Below are positions 3,350-34,269 of a DNA stretch of 64,000 nt, piece after piece (position 1 is the first letter of the stretch; each line of letters begins with the position of its first letter). A program made the translations under genes and the position numbers. The notes under the pieces are model-generated. The model saw only the letters and a program-made list of their open reading frames with translations. It ran no database searches and was not told the origin of the DNA. Source of the DNA: an uncultured Bulleidia sp. (GTDB taxonomy: Bacteria > Bacillota_I > Bacilli_A > Erysipelotrichales > Erysipelotrichaceae). The DNA is taken from contig CAKVBD010000007.1 of assembly GCA_934725105.1 (NCBI GenBank), forward strand, positions 7,747 through 71,746, in the 5' to 3' direction.

Positions 3350-4225
3350 ATGACAAGAGTAGATATCGCAATTATTGGCAGTGGTCCTGCAGGACTAGAA
3401 GCAGCTTTGACTGCGAAAAATAGAAATAAATCCATTCAGATCTTTGGTACAAAAGATTTATCTAACAAGATGCAGGTAATTGATCATCCAATTACAAACT
3501 ATCTTGGTTTATCAAATGTAACTGGAAAACAAATGGCTGAAGCATTTTTGAATCAAATGCATGATGCTGGAATTGAAATTACAGAATCTAAAGTGACAAC
3601 AGTATATGCAATGGGTGAGTATTTTGCATTACAGCTAAGTAACAATGAAATGGTGGAAGCAGAAAGTGTGATCCTGGCAAGTGGTGTTGTTGCGGGAAAA
3701 CCATTCAAGGGAGAAAGTGAATTCCTTGGTAGAGGTGTTTCGTATTGTGCAACATGTGATGCACCATTATATAAAGGAAAAGATGTAATTGTTATTGGTG
3801 GTTCAAAGGAAGAAGAAAGTGAAGCGGAATTCCTTGGAGAAGTATGTAATTCTGTAAAGTATATTCCTTTGTATAAAGGTGAGATTGTATTCAAACATGA
3901 CAATATTGTTGTGGTGAATGAAAAACCTGTTGAGATCAAAGGTATGATGAAAGCAAATACTTTAGTGACGGATCAGAATGAATATTCTACAGATTGTGTG
4001 TTTGTATTAAGAGCGGCACAATTTCCAACACAGTTAGTTCCTGGATTACAGGTAGAAGGTAATGCTGTAAAAGTGGATCGTGAAATGAAAACGAATATTC
4101 CTGGTATCTTTGCAGCTGGCGATATTGTTGGCTTGCCATATCAGTTTATTAAATCTGCTGGTGAAGGAAATATTGCGGCAATCTCTGCAGCTGCATATGT
4201 TGATCAAAAGCTAAGAAACAGATGA
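3350..4225 (+). CDS. thioredoxin reductase-like FAD/NAD(P)-dependent disulfide oxidoreductase
   Basis: N-terminal GSGPAGLEAA dinucleotide fold, redox CATCD motif followed by a VIVIGG second Rossmann motif. 291 aa, shorter than canonical TrxB. Confidence 0.7.
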   Translation: MTRVDIAIIGSGPAGLEAALTAKNRNKSIQIFGTKDLSNKMQVIDHPITNYLGLSNVTGKQMAEAFLNQMHDAGIEITESKVTTVYAMGEYFALQLSNNEMVEAESVILASGVVAGKPFKGESEFLGRGVSYCATCDAPLYKGKDVIVIGGSKEEESEAEFLGEVCNSVKYIPLYKGEIVFKHDNIVVVNEKPVEIKGMMKANTLVTDQNEYSTDCVFVLRAAQFPTQLVPGLQVEGNAVKVDREMKTNIPGIFAAGDIVGLPYQFIKSAGEGNIAAISAAAYVDQKLRNR

Positions 4226-6306: not shown

Positions 6307-6918
6307 ATGATAAAGAGAATATTTTCTGTAATATTAATTATTACCCTTTCGCTCACTTCTTTTATCCCGATTAGCGCTAAAACTTCTATTTCTTCTGAAA
6401 ATGAATTTAAAGAAATTGTTGAAAAATCTAAATACTATAAAGATTATGCAGATGAAGTTATTCAATATGATGTTTTACGTAAAGTTGAGACAGATGAAGG
6501 TACAAGATTTACCATTGAGTATAATCTCAAAACTGAAGAAGATGAATATGTACGAAACTTGGTTTTTATTGGAGATGAAAATGGTGAATTCCTCGAAGTT
6601 CTACTAACAATTGGCAAAGATGATTTGTTATCGGTTAATGATTTGATTAAGCAACATAAGACTAATATTTATATAGAAACAATAGGGCGCGTCTACCAAT
6701 GTATTAAGTATACATGCAAATCATGGTCATATGATGCGTCGTATCAATCTAGTCCTGGTTGCACTGCTATTGTAGGGAAGCCTTGTGAGATTTTTAGTTT
6801 GATGAAAAAAAAGATTGTTGCTGCTATATGTAAATCAGGAGTTTGGGCAGCGTGTCATTTTAGTGTTGATAAAGTTTGTACTGGTTATTATGAAACGTTT
6901 GATGTGTGTGATTTATGA
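6307..6918 (+). CDS. secreted protein with C-terminal 10-cysteine domain (candidate toxin or bacteriocin-like protein)
   Basis: Sec signal peptide ending ISAKTS, acidic middle region, and 10 Cys in the last 80 residues. No recognisable family. RBS GAGGA upstream. The stop overlaps the next gene as ATGA. Confidence 0.55.
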   Translation: MIKRIFSVILIITLSLTSFIPISAKTSISSENEFKEIVEKSKYYKDYADEVIQYDVLRKVETDEGTRFTIEYNLKTEEDEYVRNLVFIGDENGEFLEVLLTIGKDDLLSVNDLIKQHKTNIYIETIGRVYQCIKYTCKSWSYDASYQSSPGCTAIVGKPCEIFSLMKKKIVAAICKSGVWAACHFSVDKVCTGYYETFDVCDL

Positions 6919-7382
6919 AGAAAGTAAATGTGTTTAAATATACTGGTATTTTTATTGGTGTATTGATTATTACTTTTGTTGTTATGACATATGTATCGGA
7001 ATATATTTATAGCATGATTGGTGCAAGAGTTAACTTTAGCTTATCATTTATTGTTATTGAGTTTGTGAAGTTTGGTATCATTTATGATTTGACATTTGGT
7101 TTATTAACTACACTAATATGTATCTACATGTTCAAGAAATTTGTTGACAAATGTAAACAGAATCATAGTTTGATTTACTACCAACTATTAGAACTAGAGA
7201 AAGAATCTTGGTGTTGTTATGTGGTTGTATTAGTCGCAATACTAGCAGGGTTTATGTTAAAGAATCCAGTATTTATTATCTTTGCAAGTTTAGCTATTGT
7301 AATCTTAAATCCAATTTATAGTGTTATCTTAGTGCTAAAGAAAGATTTAAAGAATTTAGCTGTTTCAAAAGCTGCTAGTTGA
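6915..7382 (+). CDS. small 4-TM integral membrane protein (putative immunity protein)
   Basis: 155 aa with four hydrophobic helices. Translationally coupled to the Cys-rich protein gene. Hairpin TTGAGGT/ACCTCAA follows at 7404-7423. Confidence 0.5.
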   Translation: MKKVNVFKYTGIFIGVLIITFVVMTYVSEYIYSMIGARVNFSLSFIVIEFVKFGIIYDLTFGLLTTLICIYMFKKFVDKCKQNHSLIYYQLLELEKESWCCYVVVLVAILAGFMLKNPVFIIFASLAIVILNPIYSVILVLKKDLKNLAVSKAAS

Positions 7383-24456: not shown

Positions 24457-25350
24457 TTATCTTTTTTCACCAATCCACTTTAATTCGTATTCACCCGTGA
24501 CTTCCAGTGTTCCGCCATTTGACAAGTCAATCGAATCTTCTGTTTCATAGTAGTCTGTGATTCTTCCAAGAGAATCTTTGACATGCAAGCCTGCATCTTT
24601 TAATGCCTTGACTTGGTAAATGCCAGGGCGTAAAGAGCGAGGAATGTCATAGACACCAGGTGTAATTCTTAATTCGTTATCATTCTTGATATAAATCAAA
24701 TGTTCATCTTTATGATTCTTTGCGGCATTCACTTTCTGATAGAATCTTTCTCTAATAAAGAACATTTCAGCATTTTCTACTGCGTAAGTGAATGTTTTTG
24801 TTGGTGTGACAACTCTGATTTTGTCTGTATCATTTGTATTTCTAACAACATATCCTAATCTATGACAGTTGATGATATGTTCAGACATGAAATAAACCGC
24901 TGCTTCTGTTTCATATAACATACCTTCAATTTTCATGGATTCTTTTTTGCTGACGGCATCTGGAATATTATTGATAGTAGATTTTCTGACTTCAACAATA
25001 CTTCTAGGAGAATATTCATTTGGAATACTGCTTGGAGATACGCGAAGATTTGCACGAATGGCATTGATACAATGTTCTCCTTCATGTAATAAGATCTTAG
25101 GTAAAGGATATAAACGTGCAATGACATCTTCTGGCTTATTTGTTTCCAAGTATGTATCCATGATCATATCTTTCATATGTGGCTGTGCAGTGACAATACG
25201 CTGAAAGATATCATATTTCACAGGAAGACCATGTTCACTGATGATTTGTTTGCAGTTTTTACAAATATAGTGTCCATCTGATAATTTTTCTGGACGGTTA
25301 AATAATCCTCCCATTTCGGATAAACAAAAATCACATACTTTTTTTGCCAT
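24457..25350 (-). CDS. hypothetical protein with N-terminal zinc-ribbon
   Basis: CDFC...CKNC N-terminal ribbon. The remaining 260 aa have no recognisable family. Confidence 0.5.
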   Translation of the reverse strand: MAKKVCDFCLSEMGGLFNRPEKLSDGHYICKNCKQIISEHGLPVKYDIFQRIVTAQPHMKDMIMDTYLETNKPEDVIARLYPLPKILLHEGEHCINAIRANLRVSPSSIPNEYSPRSIVEVRKSTINNIPDAVSKKESMKIEGMLYETEAAVYFMSEHIINCHRLGYVVRNTNDTDKIRVVTPTKTFTYAVENAEMFFIRERFYQKVNAAKNHKDEHLIYIKNDNELRITPGVYDIPRSLRPGIYQVKALKDAGLHVKDSLGRITDYYETEDSIDLSNGGTLEVTGEYELKWIGEKR

Positions 25351-26606: not shown

Positions 26607-28679
26607 ATGCCAAGAGAGTTCCCATTAAACAAGATTCGTAATATCGGAATCATGGCTCACATTGATGCTGGTAAGACAACAACAACTGAACGTATCCTTT
26701 ATTACACAGGTAAGATTTACAAGATCGGTGAGACTCACGATGGCGCTTCCCAGATGGACTGGATGGCTCAGGAACAGGAACGTGGTATCACAATCACTTC
26801 TGCAGCTACAACATGCCACTGGAAAGATTGTCAGATCAACATTATCGATACACCGGGTCACGTAGACTTCACAGCTGAAGTTGAAAGATCTTTACGTGTA
26901 CTTGATGGTGCTGTAACAGTCCTTGACTCAAAGGCTGGTGTTGAACCACAGACAGAAACTGTTTGGAGACAGGCTTCTGAATATAAAGTTCCACGTATCG
27001 TTTTCTCTAACAAGATGGACGCTACTGGTGCTGACTTCGATATGAGTGTTAACTCTATCGGTGATCGCTTAGGTGCTAAGGCAGCTGCTATCCAGATGCC
27101 TATCGGTGCTGAAGCAAGTTTCCGTGGAATCATTGACTTAGTTACAATGAAACAGGAAATGTATACAAATGACTTGGGTACAGATATTCAGGTCGGCGAA
27201 ATTGATGAACAGTTCAAGGAAGAAGCTGAAATGAAGCATGCTGAATTACTTGAAGCTATCGCTGACTATGATGAAGATCTCATGATGAAGGTTCTTGAAG
27301 GTGAAGAACCAACTGTTGAAGAAATCAAGGCTGCTATCCGTAAGGGTGTTATGACTTCTGAATTCTTCCCAGTTCTTTGTGGATCTGCATATAAGAACAA
27401 GGGTGTTCAGATGTTATTAGACGCTGTTGTAGATTACCTGCCAGCTCCTACTGATATCGAAGCTATCCAGGGTCATTTACTTGATGGTGAAGAAGCAGTT
27501 CGTAAGCCAAGTGATGATGAACCATTCTCAGCTCTTGCATTCAAAATTGCAACTGACCCATTCGTAGGAAGATTAACATACTTCAGAGTTTACTCTGGAC
27601 ATGCTACTGCAGGCTCTTATGTATTAAATGCTACAAAGGGCAAGAGAGAAAGACTTGGACGTCTTGTAAGAATGCACGCTAACCACCGTGCTGATATCGA
27701 AGAAGTTTATACTGGTGATATCGCAGGTGCTGTTGGTCTTAAGTTCACAACAACATCCGATACACTCTGTGCTGAAGATGCACCAATTGAATTGATGCAG
27801 ATGGTATTCCCAGAACCAGTTATCCAGATGTCTGTTGAACCAAAGACAAAGGCTGACTCTCAGAAGATGGACTCTGCTTTACAGAAGTTAGCAGAAGAAG
27901 ATCCAACTTTCAAAGCTTATACAGATGAAGAAACTGGCCAGACAATCATTGCCGGTGTCGGTGAACTTCAATTAGATATCATTCTCGACCGTATGAGAAG
28001 AGAATTCAAGGTTGAAGCTACAGCAGGTGCTCCTCAGGTAGCTTACCGTGAAACAATCAAGTCCGAAGCTGAAGTACAAGGTAAGTTTGTAAGACAGTCC
28101 GGTGGTCACGGTCAGTATGGTGATGTTTGGATTAGATTTAAGCCAAACCCAGGCAAGGGATTCGAATTCGAAGATCAGACTGTTGGTGGATCAATTCCTA
28201 AGGAATTCATCAAGCCTACACAGGCAGGTCTTGAAGAAGCTCTTCCAAATGGTCTTGTAGCTGGATTCCCAGTTGTTGATATTCGTGCTGAACTATTTGA
28301 TGGTTCTTACCATGATGTCGACTCCTCTGAACAGGCATATAAGATTGCTGCATCCTTAGCTCTTAAGGAAGCTGCTAAGAAATGTAACCCAACAATTCTA
28401 GAACCTATCATGGCTGTAGATATTACTGCTCCATCTGAATACTTAGGTGCAGTTATGGGTGACGTAACTAAAAGACGTGGACAGATCCGTGAACAGGAAG
28501 AAACAGGTAATGCAATCAAGGTTAAGGCATTCGTACCATTAGCTGAAATGTTCGGTTACGTTACAGATCTTCGTGGATTTACACAGGGTCGTGGTATCTT
28601 CTCAATGCAGATGGACCACTATGAAGAAGTTCCTAAGAATATTGCTAAGGAAATTATCGAAGCTCACGCTTCTAAGTAA
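26607..28679 (+). CDS. fusA: elongation factor G
   Basis: [10 protein letters not shown]-domain, 690 aa. Confidence 0.95.
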
Positions 28680-28784
28680 TATTCTGTTTGGAATAAAAAA
28701 TGTTGTAATTTAGTTTGCCATCATATAAAATGATGGCAGACTGAATAAGTTAAAAAGTAAAAAAACTGGAGGAAAAAAACCAAT

Positions 28785-29978
28785 ATGGCAAAGGAAAAAT
28801 TCGACCGTAGCTTAGAGCATGTTAACGTTGGTACTATCGGACACGTTGACCACGGTAAAACAACTCTTACAGCTGCAATCACAAAGTATCTTGCTGATCA
28901 CCCAGAAGATGGTAAGGCTGCTTTCGAAGCATACGACCAGATCGATGGTGCACCAGAAGAAAAAGAACGTGGTATTACTATCAACACAGCTCACGTTGAA
29001 TACCAGACATTAAAGAGACACTATGCTCACGTAGACTGCCCAGGCCACGCTGACTATGTTAAGAACATGATCACTGGTGCTGCTCAGATGGATGGTGCTA
29101 TCCTCGTAGTAGCTGCTACTGATGGACCAATGCCTCAGACACGTGAACACATCTTACTTGCTCGTCAGGTAGGTGTTCCAGCTATCGTTGTATTCTTAAA
29201 CAAGTGCGACATGGTTGACGATGAAGAATTGATCGACCTTGTTGAAATGGAAGTTCGTGAACTTCTTTCTGAGTATGGATTCGATGGAGACAACTGTCCT
29301 GTAATCCGTGGTTCTGCTTTCCAGGCTCTTCAGGGAGATCCAAAGTGGACACCAGCTATCAAGGAATTATTAGATGCTGTTGACGCTTATATTCCAACAC
29401 CAACTCATGACAACGACAAGCCATTCTTAATGGCAGTTGAAGACGTATTCACAATCACAGGTCGTGGTACTGTTGCTACAGGACGTGTAGAACGTGGTGA
29501 ATTACACTTAAACGATGAAGTTGAAATCGTTGGTATCAAGGACACTTCTAAGACTGTTGTTACAGGTATCGAAATGTTCCGTAAGACTCTTGACTATGCT
29601 CAGGCTGGTGACAACATCGGTGCATTGCTCCGTGGTGTTAACCGTGATCAGATCGAACGTGGACAGGTTCTTGCTAAGCCAGGATCCGTTACACCTCATA
29701 CAAAGTTCAAGGCTCAGGTTTACGTATTAACTAAGGAAGAAGGCGGACGTCATACACCATTCGTTTCTAACTACCGTCCACAGTTCTACTTCAGAACAAC
29801 AGACGTTACTGGTGTAATCACTCTTCCAGAAGGTACAGAACTCTGCATGCCTGGTGATAACGTAGTTATGGAAGTTGAACTTCTTGCTCCTATCGCTATC
29901 GAAAACGGTACAAAGTTCTCTATCCGTGAAGGTGGTAGAACAGTAGGTTCCGGTTCTATTACAGAAATCGAAGCTTAA
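28785..29978 (+). CDS. tuf: elongation factor Tu
   Basis: [27 protein letters not shown] motifs. 397 aa. Confidence 0.95.
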
Positions 29979-29998
29979 TTTAAATCTTATTGTTACGT

Positions 29999-30029
29999 GA
30001 GAGATATCCATTCGGGTATCTCTTTTTTT
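29999..30029 (+). terminator. intrinsic terminator after tuf
   Basis: GAGAGATATCC / GGGTATCTCT imperfect stem plus T7. Confidence 0.65.
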
Positions 30030-30051
30030 ACGTCTGTAGTAATATAAATAT

Positions 30052-30726
30052 ATGATTCAAGGAATTATATTTGATTACGATGGTGTTTTAACTAAGAGAT
30101 ATGTTTCTGCATATCACATGTACCAATGGATCATTTGTTCTATTACAAATAAAGAAAAATCAGATTTAGATGTTGAAGAAATGGTTCAAACATGCTTGAT
30201 CTGGGATGAGTTTGGTCATAGTGATAAAAAATATGTATTTGATAAAATGAAAGAACATTGGTTTCATGACTTAGATGTTTCTTACTGGAGAACATACTGG
30301 TATGAACATTTTGATGCATTTCAGATTGTATCGGATGATGCGTTTGATGTGTTGAATCAATTACATAAGCATTATAAACTTGCAATTTTATCAAATGGTT
30401 TTTCTCACTCTCAACACAAAAAGATTTCTTCGTTAAAACTAGAAACGTATTTTGATGAAGTTATTGTTTCAGGTGATTATGAAATTCAAAAGCCAGATAC
30501 TAGAATTTTTCAAATAGCGTGTGATAAATTAAAGCTAGATCCAAGTGAAGTTGCAATGGTTGGTGATACATTCTTTACAGATTTATCTGGTGCAATGCGT
30601 ATTGGAATGCAGCCTGTATGGTATTGTCATGAAAGAAGACCAATTTCTGATTTTTATGTTCCGGTAGTAAAAGATTTTAAGGAACTAGAACAGTATTTCT
30701 TAGGAAATGAAATGTATGCACAATAG
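30052..30726 (+). CDS. HAD-IA family hydrolase
   Basis: FDYDGVL motif I, SNG motif, K...GDT motif IV. Confidence 0.7.
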
Positions 30727-31168
30727 AATAAAATATTTTGCAGCATGCGTATTAACATGTTTACTATATGGATGTTTTCCGCAACCATTAAATAATCCTG
30801 CTAATAATAAGATAGGAAATATATCAATCAGTGAAAGTGCTGAATCAGATCAGAAAGATGAAGTTGCAATGTATATACATCTATATGATCATCTCCCTTC
30901 TAACTACATGACGAAAAAAGAAGCTAGAAAACATGGATGGGAAGCTGGTGCATTATCTAAATTATTACCTGGGAAAAGTATCGGTGGTGATAAATATGGA
31001 AACTATGAAGAAACTTTACCAGTAGAGGATACGTATTATGAATGCGATATTGATACACAAGGTAAAACATCTAGAGGAAAGAAGAGAATCGTTTATTCAG
31101 AGGATGGAGATATCTGGTATACAGATGATCATTATGAGACTTTTGAACAGTTATATGAAGGTGAATAA
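30707..31168 (+). CDS. barnase-family guanyl-specific ribonuclease, lipoprotein
   Basis: [38 protein letters not shown] and TDDHYETF align with barnase. Its K27, E73, R87 and H102 equivalents are all present. Lipobox LLYGC. Confidence 0.75.
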
Positions 31169-31190
31169 GTTTAGATTGGACTGGTAATAA

Positions 31191-31412
31191 ATGAGTATGG
31201 CAAAGATAACAATTGATGATATCGCTAAAAAAGTGAAAGTAAGTAAAAGCACAGTTTCTCGTTATTTAAATGGTGGAAGTGAAGTATTTACATGTCGATT
31301 TTATGGAATGGAAGAAGCGTTCTTGTTTGAAGGCAAAGCTGAAGGAACAATGAATCTTTATCAAATGCATGGCTTTTCTATGAAAGATACAGAAGAAAAA
31401 GATTGTGCGTAA
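31191..31412 (+). pseudogene. LacI-family regulator remnant (HTH only)
   Basis: ITIDDIAKKVKVSKSTVSRYLNG is a LacI-type HTH, followed by unrelated sequence and a stop at 73 aa. Confidence 0.5.
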
Positions 31413-32364
31413 TTGGAGAAGCTTTGATTGATTTTGTGCCTGATGTAAATGGATGTGCTTTAAAATATGTACCTTCATTCCATAGAGTGGCAGGTGGGGC
31501 ACCAGCAAATGTTGCGGGTACGATTAGTAAACTTGGTCTTCTATCAAAAGTATTAAAGAAACTTGGAGAAGATACTTTTGGAGATTATATGATTGAAACG
31601 TTAGAAAAAAGTGGTATTGATACTTCTAGCATCTTGCGAGATCGTAACTATGAAACTTCATTGGCATTTGTATCTTTGAAGGAAGATGGAAATCGAGATT
31701 TTGCATTCTATAGAAAGAATAGTGCAGATCTGCATCTGACAGAAGATGAAATTCCTGATAATATTCTTGATGATTGTGGAATGATCCATTTCTGCAGTGC
31801 TGATCTAGTGGAATCTAGTATGAAGCAGGCACATCACAAATTGATTACGATGGCGAAAGAGAAGGGGCTGCTAATTAGTTTTGATCCGAACTTAAGACTT
31901 TCATAGTGGGAAAGTGAAGAATGTTTAAGAAAAACAGTGAATGCATTTTTACCGCTTGCAGATATTGTTAAAATTTCTGATGAAGAACTGGAATTCATTA
32001 CAGGAAAAACAAATATTGAAGAAGCATTGCCATCTCTTTTGCAAGAAAATACAAAATGTGTTGTGTATACACAATGGGGAAAGATGGTGCTGCAGTGTAT
32101 ATAAAAAATCTAAAAGCAGTATCCCACGGATATTGCGTAGATGTTGTGGATACGACAGGTGCAGGAGATTCTTTTATTGGAGCGTTTGAATATCAATTGT
32201 TAAGAGATGGTGTAGAAGATATTGAAGCAGTATCAAAAGAAACATTTGAAGAATATTTGGAATTTGCGAATGCTTGTGCTGCATATACCACAACAAAGGC
32301 TGGTGCGCTTTTGTCCATGGCTACTGCAAGCAAAATGGAAAAATGGCTGGGTAAAATCCGATAA
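31403..32364 (+). pseudogene. PfkB-family sugar kinase (fructokinase-like), disrupted
   Basis: N-terminus CVIGEALIDF...GGAPANVA and C-terminus VDTTGAGDSF are kinase-like. In-frame TAG at 31906-31908 inside DPNLRLS*WESEE, and a frameshift near 32060-32075. Pieces lie in three frames. Confidence 0.65.
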
Positions 32365-32452
32365 ATATTAAATCATGTACAAATGTGTACGTGATTTTTC
32401 TCTGCTGATAGAAAAATCGGTTAGAAACATATAGAATAGATGCGGTGATAAT

Positions 32453-32740
32453 ATGAATAGTGAATACGATAAGACAATCCATCTCAATGGATATGAGATA
32501 GAAAACAAAGAAAAAGCAATTCCATATTTAAAAACGGAATTTGATTTACCTTCTTATACAGGAAACTCCCTGGATGCAATTGCAGATAGCTTGCCAGAAG
32601 TGAAAGATCGAGTAGAAATTTTATTAACAAAAAAGAATATTACATATATTTGTGACCACTCATATGCATTTAAAGTGTTGATGATGCTTGGAAATGTGGT
32701 GAATGAGAATCCAAATTTGTATATTTTCTTTAGAGAGTGA
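32453..32740 (+). CDS. barstar-like ribonuclease inhibitor
   Basis: IHLNGYEI...LPSYTGNSLDAIADSL matches barstar INGEQI...LPEYYGENLDALWDCL, including both barnase-contact aspartates. 95 aa. Confidence 0.65.
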   Translation: MNSEYDKTIHLNGYEIENKEKAIPYLKTEFDLPSYTGNSLDAIADSLPEVKDRVEILLTKKNITYICDHSYAFKVLMMLGNVVNENPNLYIFFRE

Positions 32741-32759
32741 GAAAAAACTCTCTTTTTTT
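32732..32759 (+). terminator. intrinsic terminator
   Basis: AGAGAG / CTCTCT stem plus T-run immediately after the barstar-like stop. Confidence 0.5.
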
Positions 32760-32841
32760 ATGAGCTATATAGAAATTCAGTGTAAAACATATATATGAAG
32801 GCATATATATGCTTAAAATAAGAAATTTGAGCCAAAATTAA

Positions 32842-33102
32842 TGGCACACTGATAGCGGTTGTTATGGTGTATTCTTTTTTGGAGTACCTAATAGGATATG
32901 AAATTCATGTATAAAAATAAGAACATAGGTATAGAAAATAGCATAAATAAGCCAAATACTATAAAAGTGGCACGCTGAAAACCGTGGACATGAGAAAAAA
33001 TATTAAAAATATTTAAAAAAATGCTTGCATTGGATAAATGATAGTAGTAATATAGTTGAGCACTCGCGTAGAAGTGGGAAGTTGCCGGCACGCTAAAATG
33101 CG
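32842..33102 (+). repeat. three diverged copies of a GGCACRCT(R)AWAnCG motif at about 120-nt spacing upstream of and within the S10 leader
   Basis: TGGCACACTGATAGCGG (32842), TGGCACGCTGAAAACCG (32968), CGGCACGCTAAAATGCG (33086). Copies 1 and 2 are each preceded by AGCCAAA. Confidence 0.45.
33025..33053 (+). promoter_or_regulatory. sigma-A promoter of S10 operon with AT-rich UP region
   Basis: TTGCAT, 17 nt, TAATAT. A/T-rich tract immediately upstream. About 125-nt GC-richer structured leader to rpsJ. Confidence 0.55.
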
Positions 33103-33179
33103 TTGTCACGATAGCGTGATAACCGGGGAACTCACACGGAGCGATCCCTAAGGGGAGTGAATATAAGGAGGAAAAATTC

Positions 33180-33491
33180 ATGGCAAAGAACTCTGTAAGA
33201 ATTCGTTTGAAGGCTTACGAGAACAGAAGCTTAGATGCAGCTAGCGAAAAGATCGTTAAAACTGCAACAAGCCACGGCGCAAAGAAAATCGTCGGTCCTG
33301 TTCCGCTGCCTACTGAACGTGAGGTTGTTACAATCTTACGTGCAGTTCACAAGTATAAGGACTCTCGTGAACAGTTCGAGATCCGTACACACAAGAGACT
33401 GATTGAGATCATCGGCCCAAGTGCAGAAACAATTGATGCATTATCAAGACTTGATCTGCCTTCTGGAGTTGATATCGAAATCAAACTTTAA
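33180..33491 (+). CDS. rpsJ: 30S ribosomal protein S10
   Basis: Conserved uS10. Confidence 0.95.
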
Positions 33492-33513
33492 GAAAGGAAT
33501 CGGGTGAAATTAA

Positions 33514-34269
33514 ATGAAAGGTATTTTAGGACGTAAGCTTGGTATGACTCAAGTCTTCACGATCGAAGGAACACTGATTCCTGTTACTGTCGTTGAAGTT
33601 AAGCCAAACGTCGTACTTCAAAAGAAGACAAAGGATGTTGATGGCTACGAAGCAGTTCAGCTCGGTTACGAAGACGTTAAGGAACAACGTTCAAACAAGC
33701 CAGCAATTGGACATGCTAAGAAGGCTAACACAGCACCTAAGAAGTTCATCAAGGAATTCAACTATGATGAAATGCTCAACCTCGAAGTTGGAGCTGAAGT
33801 AAAAGCAGACATCTTCAAGGCTGGCGATATCGTTGATGTTCAGGGTACTTCTAAGGGACATGGTTACAACGGTACAATCGTTCGTAACAATGCTCACCAG
33901 GGACCTAAGACACACGGTGGTTCCAAGAACATCAGACACCAAGGTTCATTAGCAACTAACGGACGTAACAACGGTGTAGTTAACAAGGGTACAGCAATGC
34001 CTGGTCAGTATGGTGGATACACAACAACTAACCAGAACCTCGAAGTAATCAAGGTTGATGCTGAAGAAGGATACATCCTTGTTAAGGGTAATGTTCCAGG
34101 ACCAAAGAGAGGTCTTGTAACAATCCATACAACAGTTAAGCCTAAGAAGGAAGTAACAGCTGTTGAACTCATCTCTTATGAAAGTGCTTCTGTTGAAGAA
34201 GAACTTGAAAAGGTTGAAGAAACAATCAATGAAGAATTAGCAACAGAAACAGTTGCTGAAGGAAAGTGA
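33514..34269 (+). CDS. rplC: 50S ribosomal protein L3 (with acidic C-terminal extension)
   Basis: uL3 core plus a roughly 40-aa E-rich tail. Confidence 0.9.
   Translation: MKGILGRKLGMTQVFTIEGTLIPVTVVEVKPNVVLQKKTKDVDGYEAVQLGYEDVKEQRSNKPAIGHAKKANTAPKKFIKEFNYDEMLNLEVGAEVKADIFKAGDIVDVQGTSKGHGYNGTIVRNNAHQGPKTHGGSKNIRHQGSLATNGRNNGVVNKGTAMPGQYGGYTTTNQNLEVIKVDAEEGYILVKGNVPGPKRGLVTIHTTVKPKKEVTAVELISYESASVEEELEKVEETINEELATETVAEGK

Follow-up and report, generated by a model that had tools for sequence, protein, structure and literature searches.

The window, by which we mean the whole 64-kb stretch of DNA that was analysed, from an uncultured Bulleidia sp., contains a gene for a barnase-family RNase and a gene for a barstar homologue on the same strand, separated by 1284 nt that hold the degraded remains of sugar-utilisation genes (Table 1). 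A gene for a HAD-IA family phosphatase overlaps the start of the RNase gene, and the group lies between tuf and rpsJ.

Table 1. Features of the RNase–barstar locus, in window coordinates.
Feature	Coordinates	Strand	Basis or remark
Terminator-like hairpin and T-run 3' of tuf	29999..30034	+	Upstream limit of HAD–RNase–barstar unit
HAD-IA family phosphatase/nucleotidase gene, no signal peptide	30052..30726	+	PF13419, 87 bits
Barnase-family guanyl-preferring RNase precursor (ORF)	30707..31168	+	Probable start ATG 30716
Lipoprotein signal peptide, lipobox L-L-Y-G-C at its end	30716..30775	+	Cys codon 30773-30775; regex test
RNase catalytic domain, residues 51-148	30857..31150	+	phmmer alignment to barnase
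LacI-family repressor 5' stub, helix-turn-helix only, ~29 codons	31191..31281	+	PF00356
GH32 sucrose-6-phosphate hydrolase 3' tail, last 20 codons (GSEVFTCRFYGMEEAFLFEG)	31275..31337	+	Identity to L092
Fructokinase (PfkB family) pseudogene	31350..32364	+	Pfam and NCBIfam matches in three pieces
Putative Shine-Dalgarno GGTGA of the barstar gene	32444..32448	+	Inside block 32405-32452
Barstar-family RNase inhibitor, 95 aa	32453..32740	+	Pfam, jackhmmer, AlphaFold/Foldseek
Terminator-like hairpin and T-run at barstar gene end	32732..32761	+	Downstream limit of unit

Genes and gene remnants at the locus

The RNase was matched by the Pfam profile PF00545 with E = 1.7e-18 and 67.4 bits (cut-off 24 bits) over positions 4–97 of the 98 in the profile, and barnase from the PDB aligned to the catalytic domain with E = 4e-19. 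Residues K70, D95, E112, R123, R127, H142 and Y143 of the RNase correspond to K27, D54, E73, R83, R87, H102 and Y103 of barnase. In barnase catalysis, Glu73 serves as the general base and His102 as the general acid, together with Arg83, Arg87 and Lys27. The catalytic columns were invariant in an alignment of 13 diverse homologues (alignment A1). The guanine-recognition loop, S57-N58-R59-E60 in barnase, reads G-N-Y-E here, with Tyr in place of R59 between the retained N and E; Tyr is the usual residue at this position within the RNase clade. The product of 30707–31168 is thus a barnase-family protein and is predicted to be an active RNase. Its start at 30716 is likelier than one at 30707, because the Shine-Dalgarno sequence AGGAA (30702–30706) lies upstream of that ATG and because gene callers on other assemblies give a product of 150 aa.

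The N-terminal sequence LLYGC fits the PROSITE-type lipobox pattern, and its Cys is residue 20 of the 150-aa form. A PS51257-type signal consists of a positively charged N-region, a hydrophobic core and the motif [LIVMFWSTAG](2)-[LIVMFYSTAGCQ]-[AGS]-C with the Cys at position 15–35, all of which the RNase N-terminus has. The RNase is thus predicted to be lipidated at the lipobox Cys.

For the 95-aa protein, the PF01337 profile gave 29.3 bits (cut-off 23.4 bits), with only profile positions 2–51 of 96 matched. That the assignment might rest solely on this borderline, half-length match was excluded by a full-length jackhmmer match and by the fold. Started from the B. amyloliquefaciens barstar, jackhmmer found the protein with E = 4e-27 over barstar residues 2–88, and the AlphaFold model has the strand-helix-helix-strand-helix-helix-strand order of barstar, a fold of three parallel strands and four helices. 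All of the top 27 PDB matches retrieved by Foldseek were barstar (TM 0.73/0.77, rmsd 2.3 Å). The model was built with 7 close sequences and has a mean pLDDT of 76.6 (42–70 for the remaining four models); since the alignment is shallow, confidence in the fold is moderate. Profile searches and predicted fold together confirm the product of 32453–32740 as a full-length barstar homologue.

Residues Y35, D41 and D45 of this protein correspond to Y29, D35 and D39 of barstar, and E80 is also kept. The contact region reads L-P-S-Y-T-G-N-S-L-D-A-I-A-D, with the DxxxD on the second helix preceded by the Tyr. Among the 79 barstar homologues examined, D35 was kept in 75 of 76 and D39 in 76 of 76. The interface differs from that of the classical pair at R59 of the RNase (to Y) and at W38 (to A), T42 (to P) and E76 (to N) of barstar. 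The 95-aa protein would be expected to inhibit the RNase, with an affinity that may not match that of the classical pair. The block that contains its putative ribosome-binding site is conserved in the related loci L006 and L092. An earlier note on this DNA had described both genes, the RNase with its catalytic residues and lipobox and the barstar-like protein with both contact Asp residues; this description was borne out, and both proteins scored above their Pfam cut-offs.

Between the two genes, PF00356 matches only residues 7–32 of a 73-aa LacI ORF. A functional LacI consists of a helix-turn-helix and a periplasmic-binding-protein-like domain, about 330 aa in all, whereas the remnant has no effector domain; at 31225–31281 its DNA aligns with the 5' portion of the intact lacI gene (316 aa) of locus L093. 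The GH32 tail is fused in frame to the lacI stub, and its former stop codon is now AAA (31335–31337). At the DNA level the tail has 90% identity to its counterpart in L092, a GH32 remnant with a product that gave weak matches to PF00251 and PF08244. The pfkB gene has no uninterrupted frame across the PfkB domain. It carries three lesions, defined against the nearly intact 325-aa copy of L092: a 1-nt deletion at 31401/31402, an in-frame change of TTG to TAG at 31904–31906, and a frameshifting insertion of 2 nt (AC) at 32069–32070 that is absent in loci L004 and L005. The closest intact fructokinases beyond this locus are about 65% identical and belong to Lachnospiraceae, e.g., Anaerostipes. The LacI helix-turn-helix stub, the TAG and the downstream frameshift had all been recognised in the earlier note as signs of a decaying lacI–pfkB locus, while the GH32 remnant and the 1-nt deletion had been overlooked. 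The RNase, barstar, LacI and PfkB elements all lie where the note placed them, with matches well above chance. Assembly error was rejected as the source of the lesions: independently produced JGI, Logan and ENA assemblies show the same broken arrangement with the same lesions, and the broken locus is therefore no assembly artefact.

Firmicutes sucrose utilisation clusters comprise a LacI-type regulator (ScrR), a GH32 sucrose-6-phosphate hydrolase and a fructokinase. The insert has remnants of the same three gene types in the same order. It differs from these clusters in being non-functional, with lacI and GH32 reduced to stubs and pfkB interrupted by its three lesions. Transporter genes were absent from every version of the cassette seen.

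The HAD protein is YjjG-like, yet scores under the curated cut-off. Its gene has a dN/dS of 0.10 and extends 11 nt into the RNase gene, counted from the probable start of the latter. Linkage of the HAD and RNase genes was found only in the genus-level group of the window (loci L003–L011). The HAD gene was rejected as a general partner of the RNase, being present in 0 of 80 other genomes among the matches listed. The spacer between tuf and the HAD gene is 73 nt and consists mostly of the terminator. (The host EF-Tu shares 91% identity with the Solobacterium moorei protein.) Terminator-like sites were found only after tuf and after the barstar gene, and none between the RNase and barstar genes. 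Promoter-like sites were not above chance (14 found, 16.5 expected from shuffled sequence), so that none was assigned as a promoter, and an Rfam scan of 28600–33600 at E ≤ 1 gave no match. The RNase and barstar genes may be co-transcribed. With no terminator-like site ahead of it and a putative ribosome-binding site of its own, the barstar gene could still be expressed on one transcript with the RNase gene, or else be driven by a putative internal promoter.

Synteny and selection

Family-level synteny was taken from 80 Clostridia genomes with a related RNase, which served for that purpose only (the matches listed did not include the window's own species, and the best of them was 66% identical), and close relatives were gathered by exact-protein look-ups. 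Among the matches listed, a barstar homologue lay directly downstream of the related RNase, on the same strand, in 65–68 of the 80 genomes, and the gap between the two genes was 300 nt or less in 62 of the 80 Clostridia genomes. The median gap in the family is about 27 nt, compared to 1284 nt in the window. At the same chromosomal site, L009–L011 have the order tuf–HAD–RNase–barstar–rpsJ with a 27-nt spacer between RNase and barstar. Other relatives hold different remainders of the insert. In L006 the spacer is down to 215 nt and contains what is left of the lacI helix-turn-helix; a GH32 remnant and a nearly intact pfkB lie between the genes in L092; and L093 has an intact lacI, a TnpB insertion and a 5'-truncated pfkB. 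The lesions vary among close strains.

The two genes thus appear to be genuine cognate partners rather than unrelated neighbours, as the comparison with relatives proposed in the earlier note was meant to decide. Because L009–L011 have the 27-nt spacer and the genes are adjacent in 62 of the 80 listed genomes, the cassette would have entered between genes that were already neighbours; the synteny settles this order of events, in which a sucrose cassette (lacI, GH32, pfkB) was apparently inserted into the pair and is now being deleted. Ancestrally, a HAD–RNase–barstar unit would have occupied the site between tuf and the S10 operon, with RNase and barstar adjacent. In an ancestor of the lineage, a cassette with a LacI-type repressor, a GH32 sucrose hydrolase and a fructokinase would have landed between them, after which it would have been inactivated and deleted piecemeal, independently in different sublineages, while purifying selection kept the RNase and inhibitor genes intact. 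The insert-free state of the L009 lineage is less likely to represent a clean deletion of the insert than its primary absence. Of the two histories offered in the earlier note, the decay of a sugar locus stands, while insertion of the pair around or into that locus gives way to entry of the cassette into an adjacent pair. Nor is the pair being pulled apart, as had been suggested there: the insert is shrinking, to 215 nt in L006.

Purifying selection acts on both the RNase gene and the barstar gene. In the comparison of the window with L006, dN/dS was 0.16 for the RNase and 0.07 for barstar (range for both genes, 0.07–0.17). No assembly examined has a broken RNase or barstar ORF, while stops, frameshifts and deletions have built up in the intervening DNA. 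The exact 95-aa barstar sequence was found in 105 blocks of the assembly collection, on 93 contigs. Compared to L004, the RNase gene of the window is 4.8% divergent and the pseudogene insert 1.4%. The 10 amino acid differences between the two RNases are confined to the signal peptide, linker and first helix and leave the catalytic domain unchanged; diversifying selection as evidence of an arms race at the interface was dropped for this reason. At silent sites, the HAD–RNase–barstar islet has a dS of about 0.9–1.3 between the window and L006, compared to 0.25 for a neighbouring non-ribosomal gene. The locus offers a natural example of a barnase–barstar pair that tolerates interruption by over 1 kb of foreign DNA, with both partners maintained intact by selection. 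It also shows, across related uncultured Erysipelotrichaceae, a sucrose cassette whose decay has reached different stages at a single chromosomal site.

Function of the pair

We consider it probable, at roughly three in four, that the locus encodes a chromosomal barnase/barstar-type pair in which an exported RNase is anchored at the cell surface and its inhibitor is cytoplasmic, the two genes being split by a decaying sucrose cassette. The RNase would be made with its lipoprotein signal peptide and exported, and the lipid on the lipobox Cys, together with a linker of about 30 residues, would hold it on the outer face of the cytoplasmic membrane. By analogy with the Bacillus enzymes, the tethered RNase might cut extracellular RNA, most likely for nutrient scavenging. 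The barstar homologue, which has no signal peptide, would remain in the cytoplasm and block any RNase that folded before export, its second helix entering the active site with the DxxxD and the preceding Tyr. Beyond its correct annotation, the locus would then matter little, as an ordinary RNase–inhibitor pair.

A close parallel is barnase/barstar of B. amyloliquefaciens (PDB 1BRS), in which the RNase has the same fold family and catalytic set (K27, E73, R83, R87, H102), the inhibitor has the same fold and contacts (Y29, D35, D39), and the presumed logic of an exported RNase and a cytoplasmic inhibitor is the same. Unlike barnase, which has a cleaved secretory signal, the RNase described here has a lipoprotein signal, and R59 of the loop that contacts both guanine and barstar is a Tyr; the inhibitor is about 23% identical to barstar and has A and N in place of W38 and E76. 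[quoted passage not shown] This corresponds to the layout taken as ancestral here, and is shared with most Clostridia RNase–barstar loci among the matches listed. In contrast to balifase/YrdF, the window genes are separated by pseudogenes, the RNase is predicted to be lipid-anchored, and the neighbours are the HAD phosphatase gene, tuf and rpsJ. The synthesis of binase and balifase is induced by phosphate starvation (PMC5021464). The classical barnase and binase genes do not share an operon with the genes for their inhibitors, and separation of the RNase gene from the inhibitor gene is therefore tolerated.

We considered the possibility that the surface-tethered RNase poisons neighbouring cells on contact, with barstar providing immunity against attack by sister cells. 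The gene order, toxin followed by immunity, agrees with such a role. Zhang et al. (2012; PMC3482391) describe simple barnase–barstar pairs in this order as widespread and see them as incipient toxin–immunity systems. Their Tox-Barnase/Imm-Barstar pairs share with the window the gene order, the DxxxD and the form of a single cassette without notable polymorphism; the window pair differs in being broken by a foreign cassette and in showing no sign of a larger polymorphic toxin locus. The apparently high silent-site divergence of the islet would also be in keeping with interbacterial toxicity. However, the 150-aa RNase has only the lipoprotein signal and the short linker before the RNase domain, with no delivery or translocation domain, no repeats and no other Pfam domain. 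Within the 64-kb window there are one RNase and one barstar, with no variable tips and no spare or orphan cassettes. Furthermore, the catalytic domain is identical in the window and L004, and dN/dS is far below 1. An interbacterial role is thus unlikely.

That the pair is on its way to loss, the separation having uncoupled expression of the inhibitor and left one or both genes non-functional, we regard as very unlikely. Such a fate would fit the outlying gap between the genes, the altered interface residues and the idea in the earlier note of a pair drifting apart. It is at odds with two ORFs that stay intact in all assemblies examined while the DNA between them decays, with the wide occurrence of the exact barstar sequence, with the low dN/dS and with the conservation of catalytic and contact residues.

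Even less probable is a history in which the sugar locus came first at this site, with the RNase and barstar genes entering around or into it afterwards. The lacI remnant is common to the window and L006 lineages, which suggests that the sugar genes have long been resident at the site. Nevertheless, adjacency of RNase and barstar is the rule across Clostridia among the matches listed and is found at this very site in L009–L011, and two coordinated insertions would be needed to flank a pre-existing operon with cognate halves.

An intracellular type II toxin–antitoxin addiction module, suggested by the combination of a small, toxic RNase and a nearby gene for a small protein inhibitor, is hardly credible: almost every homologue retains a signal peptide and lipobox, which makes export of the RNase most likely; the inhibitor gene lies downstream of the toxin gene, whereas a type II antitoxin gene is usually upstream; and the inhibitor is a compact barstar fold only, with no DNA-binding domain.

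Lipid anchoring across the RNase clade

A lipid-anchored barnase had initially been thought unusual. The lipobox is, however, present in 103 of the 120 best RNase homologues (regex test) and in at least 51 of the 80 RNases of Clostridia genomes among the matches listed, and its Cys is invariant in all 13 homologues of alignment A1. Predicted lipid anchoring is thus the norm in the RNase clade and no oddity. A search of the literature for lipoprotein barnase-like RNases found no discussion of them. The close barnase homologues of anaerobic Firmicutes, being mostly predicted lipoproteins, could merit a short comparative or experimental note.

A wider proposition, which we hold to be doubtful, is that lipid-anchored barnase-type RNases with cytoplasmic barstar dominate, undescribed, in anaerobic oral, gut and rumen Firmicutes and have a role beyond that of free barnase. 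One possibility for such a role would be the destruction of neighbour or host RNA at contact range; another would be the capture of extracellular RNA at the surface, coupled to the adjacent HAD nucleotidase. If there were such an additional role, allele exchange or balancing selection of the kind found at toxin–immunity loci would account for the apparently deep divergence of the islet at silent sites.

A predicted barnase-family lipoprotein and a barstar homologue

The locus is bounded by tuf and rpsJ and so lies between the str and S10 operons of a low-G+C Firmicute. EF-Tu from the window is identical to that of Solobacterium moorei at 362 of 397 positions, within a common 90%-identity cluster. 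This makes the source a member of the Erysipelotrichaceae related to Solobacterium but distinct from S. moorei.

Features of the tuf–rpsJ interval (window coordinates; pfkB lesions relative to the nearly intact 325-aa copy in the related locus L092)
Feature	Position	Strand	Remark
tuf	28785-29978
Terminator-like hairpin and T-run	29999-30034		directly 3' of tuf
HAD-IA phosphatase gene	30052-30726	+
RNase gene	30707-31168	+
73-aa ORF	31191-31412	+
pfkB lesion 1	31401/31402		1-nt deletion
Three PfkB-matching ORF pieces	31403-32364	+
pfkB lesion 2	31904-31906		TTG to TAG, in frame
pfkB lesion 3	32069-32070		+2 nt (AC) insertion
95-aa ORF (barstar homologue)	32453-32740	+
Terminator-like hairpin and T-run	32732-32761		directly 3' of the 95-aa ORF
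rpsJ	33180-33491

The RNase ORF matched Pfam PF00545 over 94 of 98 profile positions (E = 1.7e-18; 67.4 bits, cut-off 24 bits), and its residues 51–148 matched PDB barnase chains with E = 4e-19. Aligned to PDB barnase, K70, D95, E112, R123, R127, H142 and Y143 correspond to barnase K27, D54, E73, R83, R87, H102 and Y103; all seven are invariant across 13 aligned homologues that are 50–69% identical to the window protein. The position of barnase R59 is occupied by Tyr, which is common there across the clade. The N-terminus ends in LLYGC and satisfies a PROSITE-type lipobox rule, bearing out the earlier note's description of a barnase-family RNase with its catalytic residues and a lipobox. Its true start is probably the ATG at 30716, since AGGAA at 30702–30706 lies at the proper distance and all gene calls on other assemblies give a 150-aa product.

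The earlier note considered a lipid-anchored barnase unusual, a view that the data did not support. The lipobox test was passed by 103 of the 120 best database homologues (several of the others being fragments or near misses), and the lipobox Cys is invariant in the 13-sequence alignment. At least 51 of the 80 RNases from the listed genome loci passed a conservative version of the test, and several failures visibly have a lipobox that the script missed. Judged from these sequences, the lipoprotein form is the rule in this clade. A literature search on barnase-type lipoproteins found nothing; such proteins may be under-described rather than rare. A group of RNase homologues (P0012–P0019; 263–268 aa) carries two tandem barnase-type domains behind a single lipoprotein signal. 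P0012 has Arg for the catalytic His in domain 1 (TEDRYES) and retains the His in domain 2 (TDDHYET). At one tandem-domain locus, from a Candidatus Limivicinus MAG (L022, 5878–6700), the RNase gene is followed by one barstar gene.

The 95-aa ORF scored 29.3 bits against Pfam PF01337 (cut-off 23.4 bits), with a match confined to the N-terminal half of the profile, and direct phmmer comparison with PDB barstar was weak (E about 0.2). As this was the weakest point of the original observation, the barstar identity was tested in three further ways. A jackhmmer search that started from B. amyloliquefaciens barstar and covered the ORFs of every fetched locus reached the protein with E = 4e-27 (92 bits), aligning barstar 2–88 to residues 7–92. 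In this alignment Y29, D35, D39 and E80 of barstar are kept, including both barnase-contact Asp residues of the earlier note (D35 and D39), which are almost invariant across 79 sequences; W38 is replaced by Ala, T42 by Pro and E76 by Asn. An AlphaFold2 model built from 7 sequences (mean pLDDT 76.6) has the order strand-helix-helix-strand-helix-helix-strand, and all 27 of its best Foldseek matches in the PDB are barstar chains (TM 0.73/0.77, rmsd 2.3 Å, 90 columns). The protein is a full-length barstar homologue.

Conservation of the pair

The earlier note had allowed that the two genes might prove to be unrelated neighbours. The synteny set comprised 80 listed loci with related RNases, one genome per species, most of them rumen and gut MAGs of Clostridia. 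A same-strand downstream barstar homologue was found in 65 of these by phmmer and in 68 by jackhmmer; in 62 it starts no more than 300 nt from the end of the RNase match, with a median gap of about 27 nt. At the same site in loci L009–L011 of the window's own genus-level group, the order is tuf-HAD-RNase-barstar-rpsJ with a 27-nt RNase-barstar spacer; their RNase (P0066) and barstar homologue are 58% and 64% identical to those of the window. The downstream barstar in most listed loci and the 27-nt spacer argue against chance proximity: the partners are cognate and were ancestrally adjacent. The 1284-nt gap in the window is an outlier. Two unrelated Clostridia genomes also have large gaps, of about 1200 nt in L026 (RNase 1874–2224, barstar 3379–3681) and about 540 nt in L088 (barstar 6787–7098), which points to insertions between the partners more than once.

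Neither ORF is disrupted in any of the assemblies seen, and 105 blocks of the assembly collection contain the 95-aa sequence unchanged. Between the window and L006, another member of the group, dN/dS was 0.10 for HAD, 0.16 for the RNase and 0.07 for barstar. Non-saturated comparisons with L009 gave 0.27 for HAD (from both window and L006), 0.17 for the RNase (L006) and 0.17 for barstar (window). These sequences indicate that the pair is maintained while the intervening DNA decays.

The HAD-RNase-barstar block and the first ~260 nt of the barstar-rpsJ spacer are 70–87% identical between the window and L006; in the flanks, tuf and the S10-operon genes are 97–100% identical. Silent-site divergence is ~0.9–1.3 in the block versus 0.25 in a single control gene (non-ribosomal, 297 aa, 24457–25350), and a short lacI remnant within the block is 90% identical. 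Allele exchange or relaxed codon constraint could account for the high divergence. Compared with L004, a close strain, the RNase gene shows 22 differences, none of them beyond codon 77 and so confined to the signal peptide, linker and first helix, and the 3' end of the pfkB pseudogene (32097–32312) shows 13 in 215 nt, mostly window G for L004 A. These clusters (30716–30950 and 32097–32312) resemble short tracts of recombination or the outcome of a local bias in mutation.

The decayed sucrose cassette between the genes

The LacI helix-turn-helix stub reported earlier was recovered as a match to residues 7–32 only of the 73-aa ORF. Comparison with related loci assigned residues 29–48 (GSEVFTCRFYGMEEAFLFEG; 31275–31334) to the C-terminal end of a gene for a GH32 sucrose hydrolase, whose old stop codon is AAA in the window and of which L092 retains a longer remnant. 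The final 21 codons are the true pfkB 5' end, with its ATG at 31350. Measured against L092, the in-frame TAG and the frameshift of the earlier note were both found (lesions 2 and 3). Lesions 1 and 2 are common to the window and the L004/L005 lineage; the AC insertion occurs only in the window and the related loci L001 and L003. In addition, L001 lacks one nucleotide at 31911, and a 1-nt deletion particular to L092 lies near the 3' end. The same arrangement recurs in assemblies from JGI, Logan and ENA, which shows the lesions to be genuine. At dS 0.24, dN/dS between the window and L092 pfkB was 0.195, which argues for long constraint and fairly recent inactivation. The nearest fructokinases outside this site are ~65% identical, from Lachnospiraceae such as Anaerostipes.

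Four further states of this site were recovered. L004 and L005 (RNase 93% identical to the window) share the window's insert and two of its three pfkB lesions. L092 lacks the lacI stub and has, in order, the RNase 3' end, an 86-aa GH32 remnant made of joined N- and C-terminal pieces, pfkB and barstar. In L093 and L094, from another strain, an opposite-strand TnpB gene cuts into the 5' end of lacI (316 aa, otherwise intact), and the 5' third of pfkB has given way to a PRiA4_ORF3-family gene; barstar and rpsJ follow. Within this stretch (L093 423–3400, L094 277–696), the TnpB-type gene was called as 470 aa with a Cas12f1-like_TNB domain; the contig ends inside the element. The site seems to attract mobile DNA. 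In L006–L008 (RNase 69% identical), the RNase-barstar spacer is 215 nt and reads MAKITIDDIAKKVNVSNSTVSR, then a frameshifted continuation of the LacI helix-turn-helix; this remnant joins directly to the conserved block 5' of barstar.

The simplest reading of these sequences is a single ancestral insertion followed by independent erosion. A sucrose cassette (lacI, GH32, pfkB) would have entered a short RNase-barstar spacer in an ancestor shared by every one of these lineages but L009, and would later have been worn down by separate deletions, point lesions and hits from mobile elements. The earlier note's alternative, that the pair was inserted around or into a sugar locus, did not stand; synteny resolved the history as insertion between already adjacent partners. 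The note's observation was confirmed, its identifications were right and its interpretation was partly supported. The local history is untidy but explicable.

Expression and proposed function

No terminator-like site was found between the two hairpins, and promoter-like sites occurred at chance level, so no promoter was assigned. The tuf-HAD spacer (29979–30051) is only 73 nt, mostly tuf terminator hairpin, and no convincing promoter fits there 5' of the HAD gene; tuf is strongly expressed, and read-through of its transcript may be what the HAD-RNase-barstar unit relies on. With its probable start at 30716, the RNase gene shares its first 11 nt (30716–30726) with the end of the HAD gene, an overlap suggestive of translational coupling. 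This HAD-RNase link is conserved in L003–L011 and found in none of the 80 listed other genomes with related RNases.

Barstar has its own ribosome-binding site, GGTGA at 32444–32448, in a block conserved in L006 and L092. With this and no intervening terminator-like site, it can presumably be made from a read-through transcript or an internal promoter. In Bacillus, the balifase gene shares an operon with its inhibitor gene, but those of barnase and binase do not (PMC5021464); physical separation of the partners is thus tolerated in nature. Synthesis of binase and balifase is induced by phosphate starvation (PMC5021464).

By analogy with the Bacillus system and from the features of the locus, the RNase precursor would most likely be exported by Sec, lipidated at Cys20 and cleaved. 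The RNase would then be tethered to the outer face of the membrane by a ~30-residue linker rich in Asn, Ser and Glu and degrade extracellular RNA, while barstar, which has no signal peptide, would neutralise any RNase folding in the cytoplasm. The pair fits the barnase-barstar description of Zhang et al., in which Imm-Barstar is defined by a DxxxD motif (PMC3482391). A polymorphic toxin system was rejected for lack of a delivery module, of spare cassettes in the 64-kb window and of catalytic-domain variation relative to L004. A type II toxin-antitoxin module was rejected because the toxin carries an export signal and the inhibitor has no DNA-binding domain.

The barstar-rpsJ spacer (32741–33179; 439 nt) gave no Rfam match at E ≤ 1, and a minus-strand 97-aa ORF at 32888–33181 looks spurious. 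The first part of the spacer is only ~70% identical to L006; the last ~180 nt are 97–99% conserved and presumably hold the S10-operon promoter and leader.
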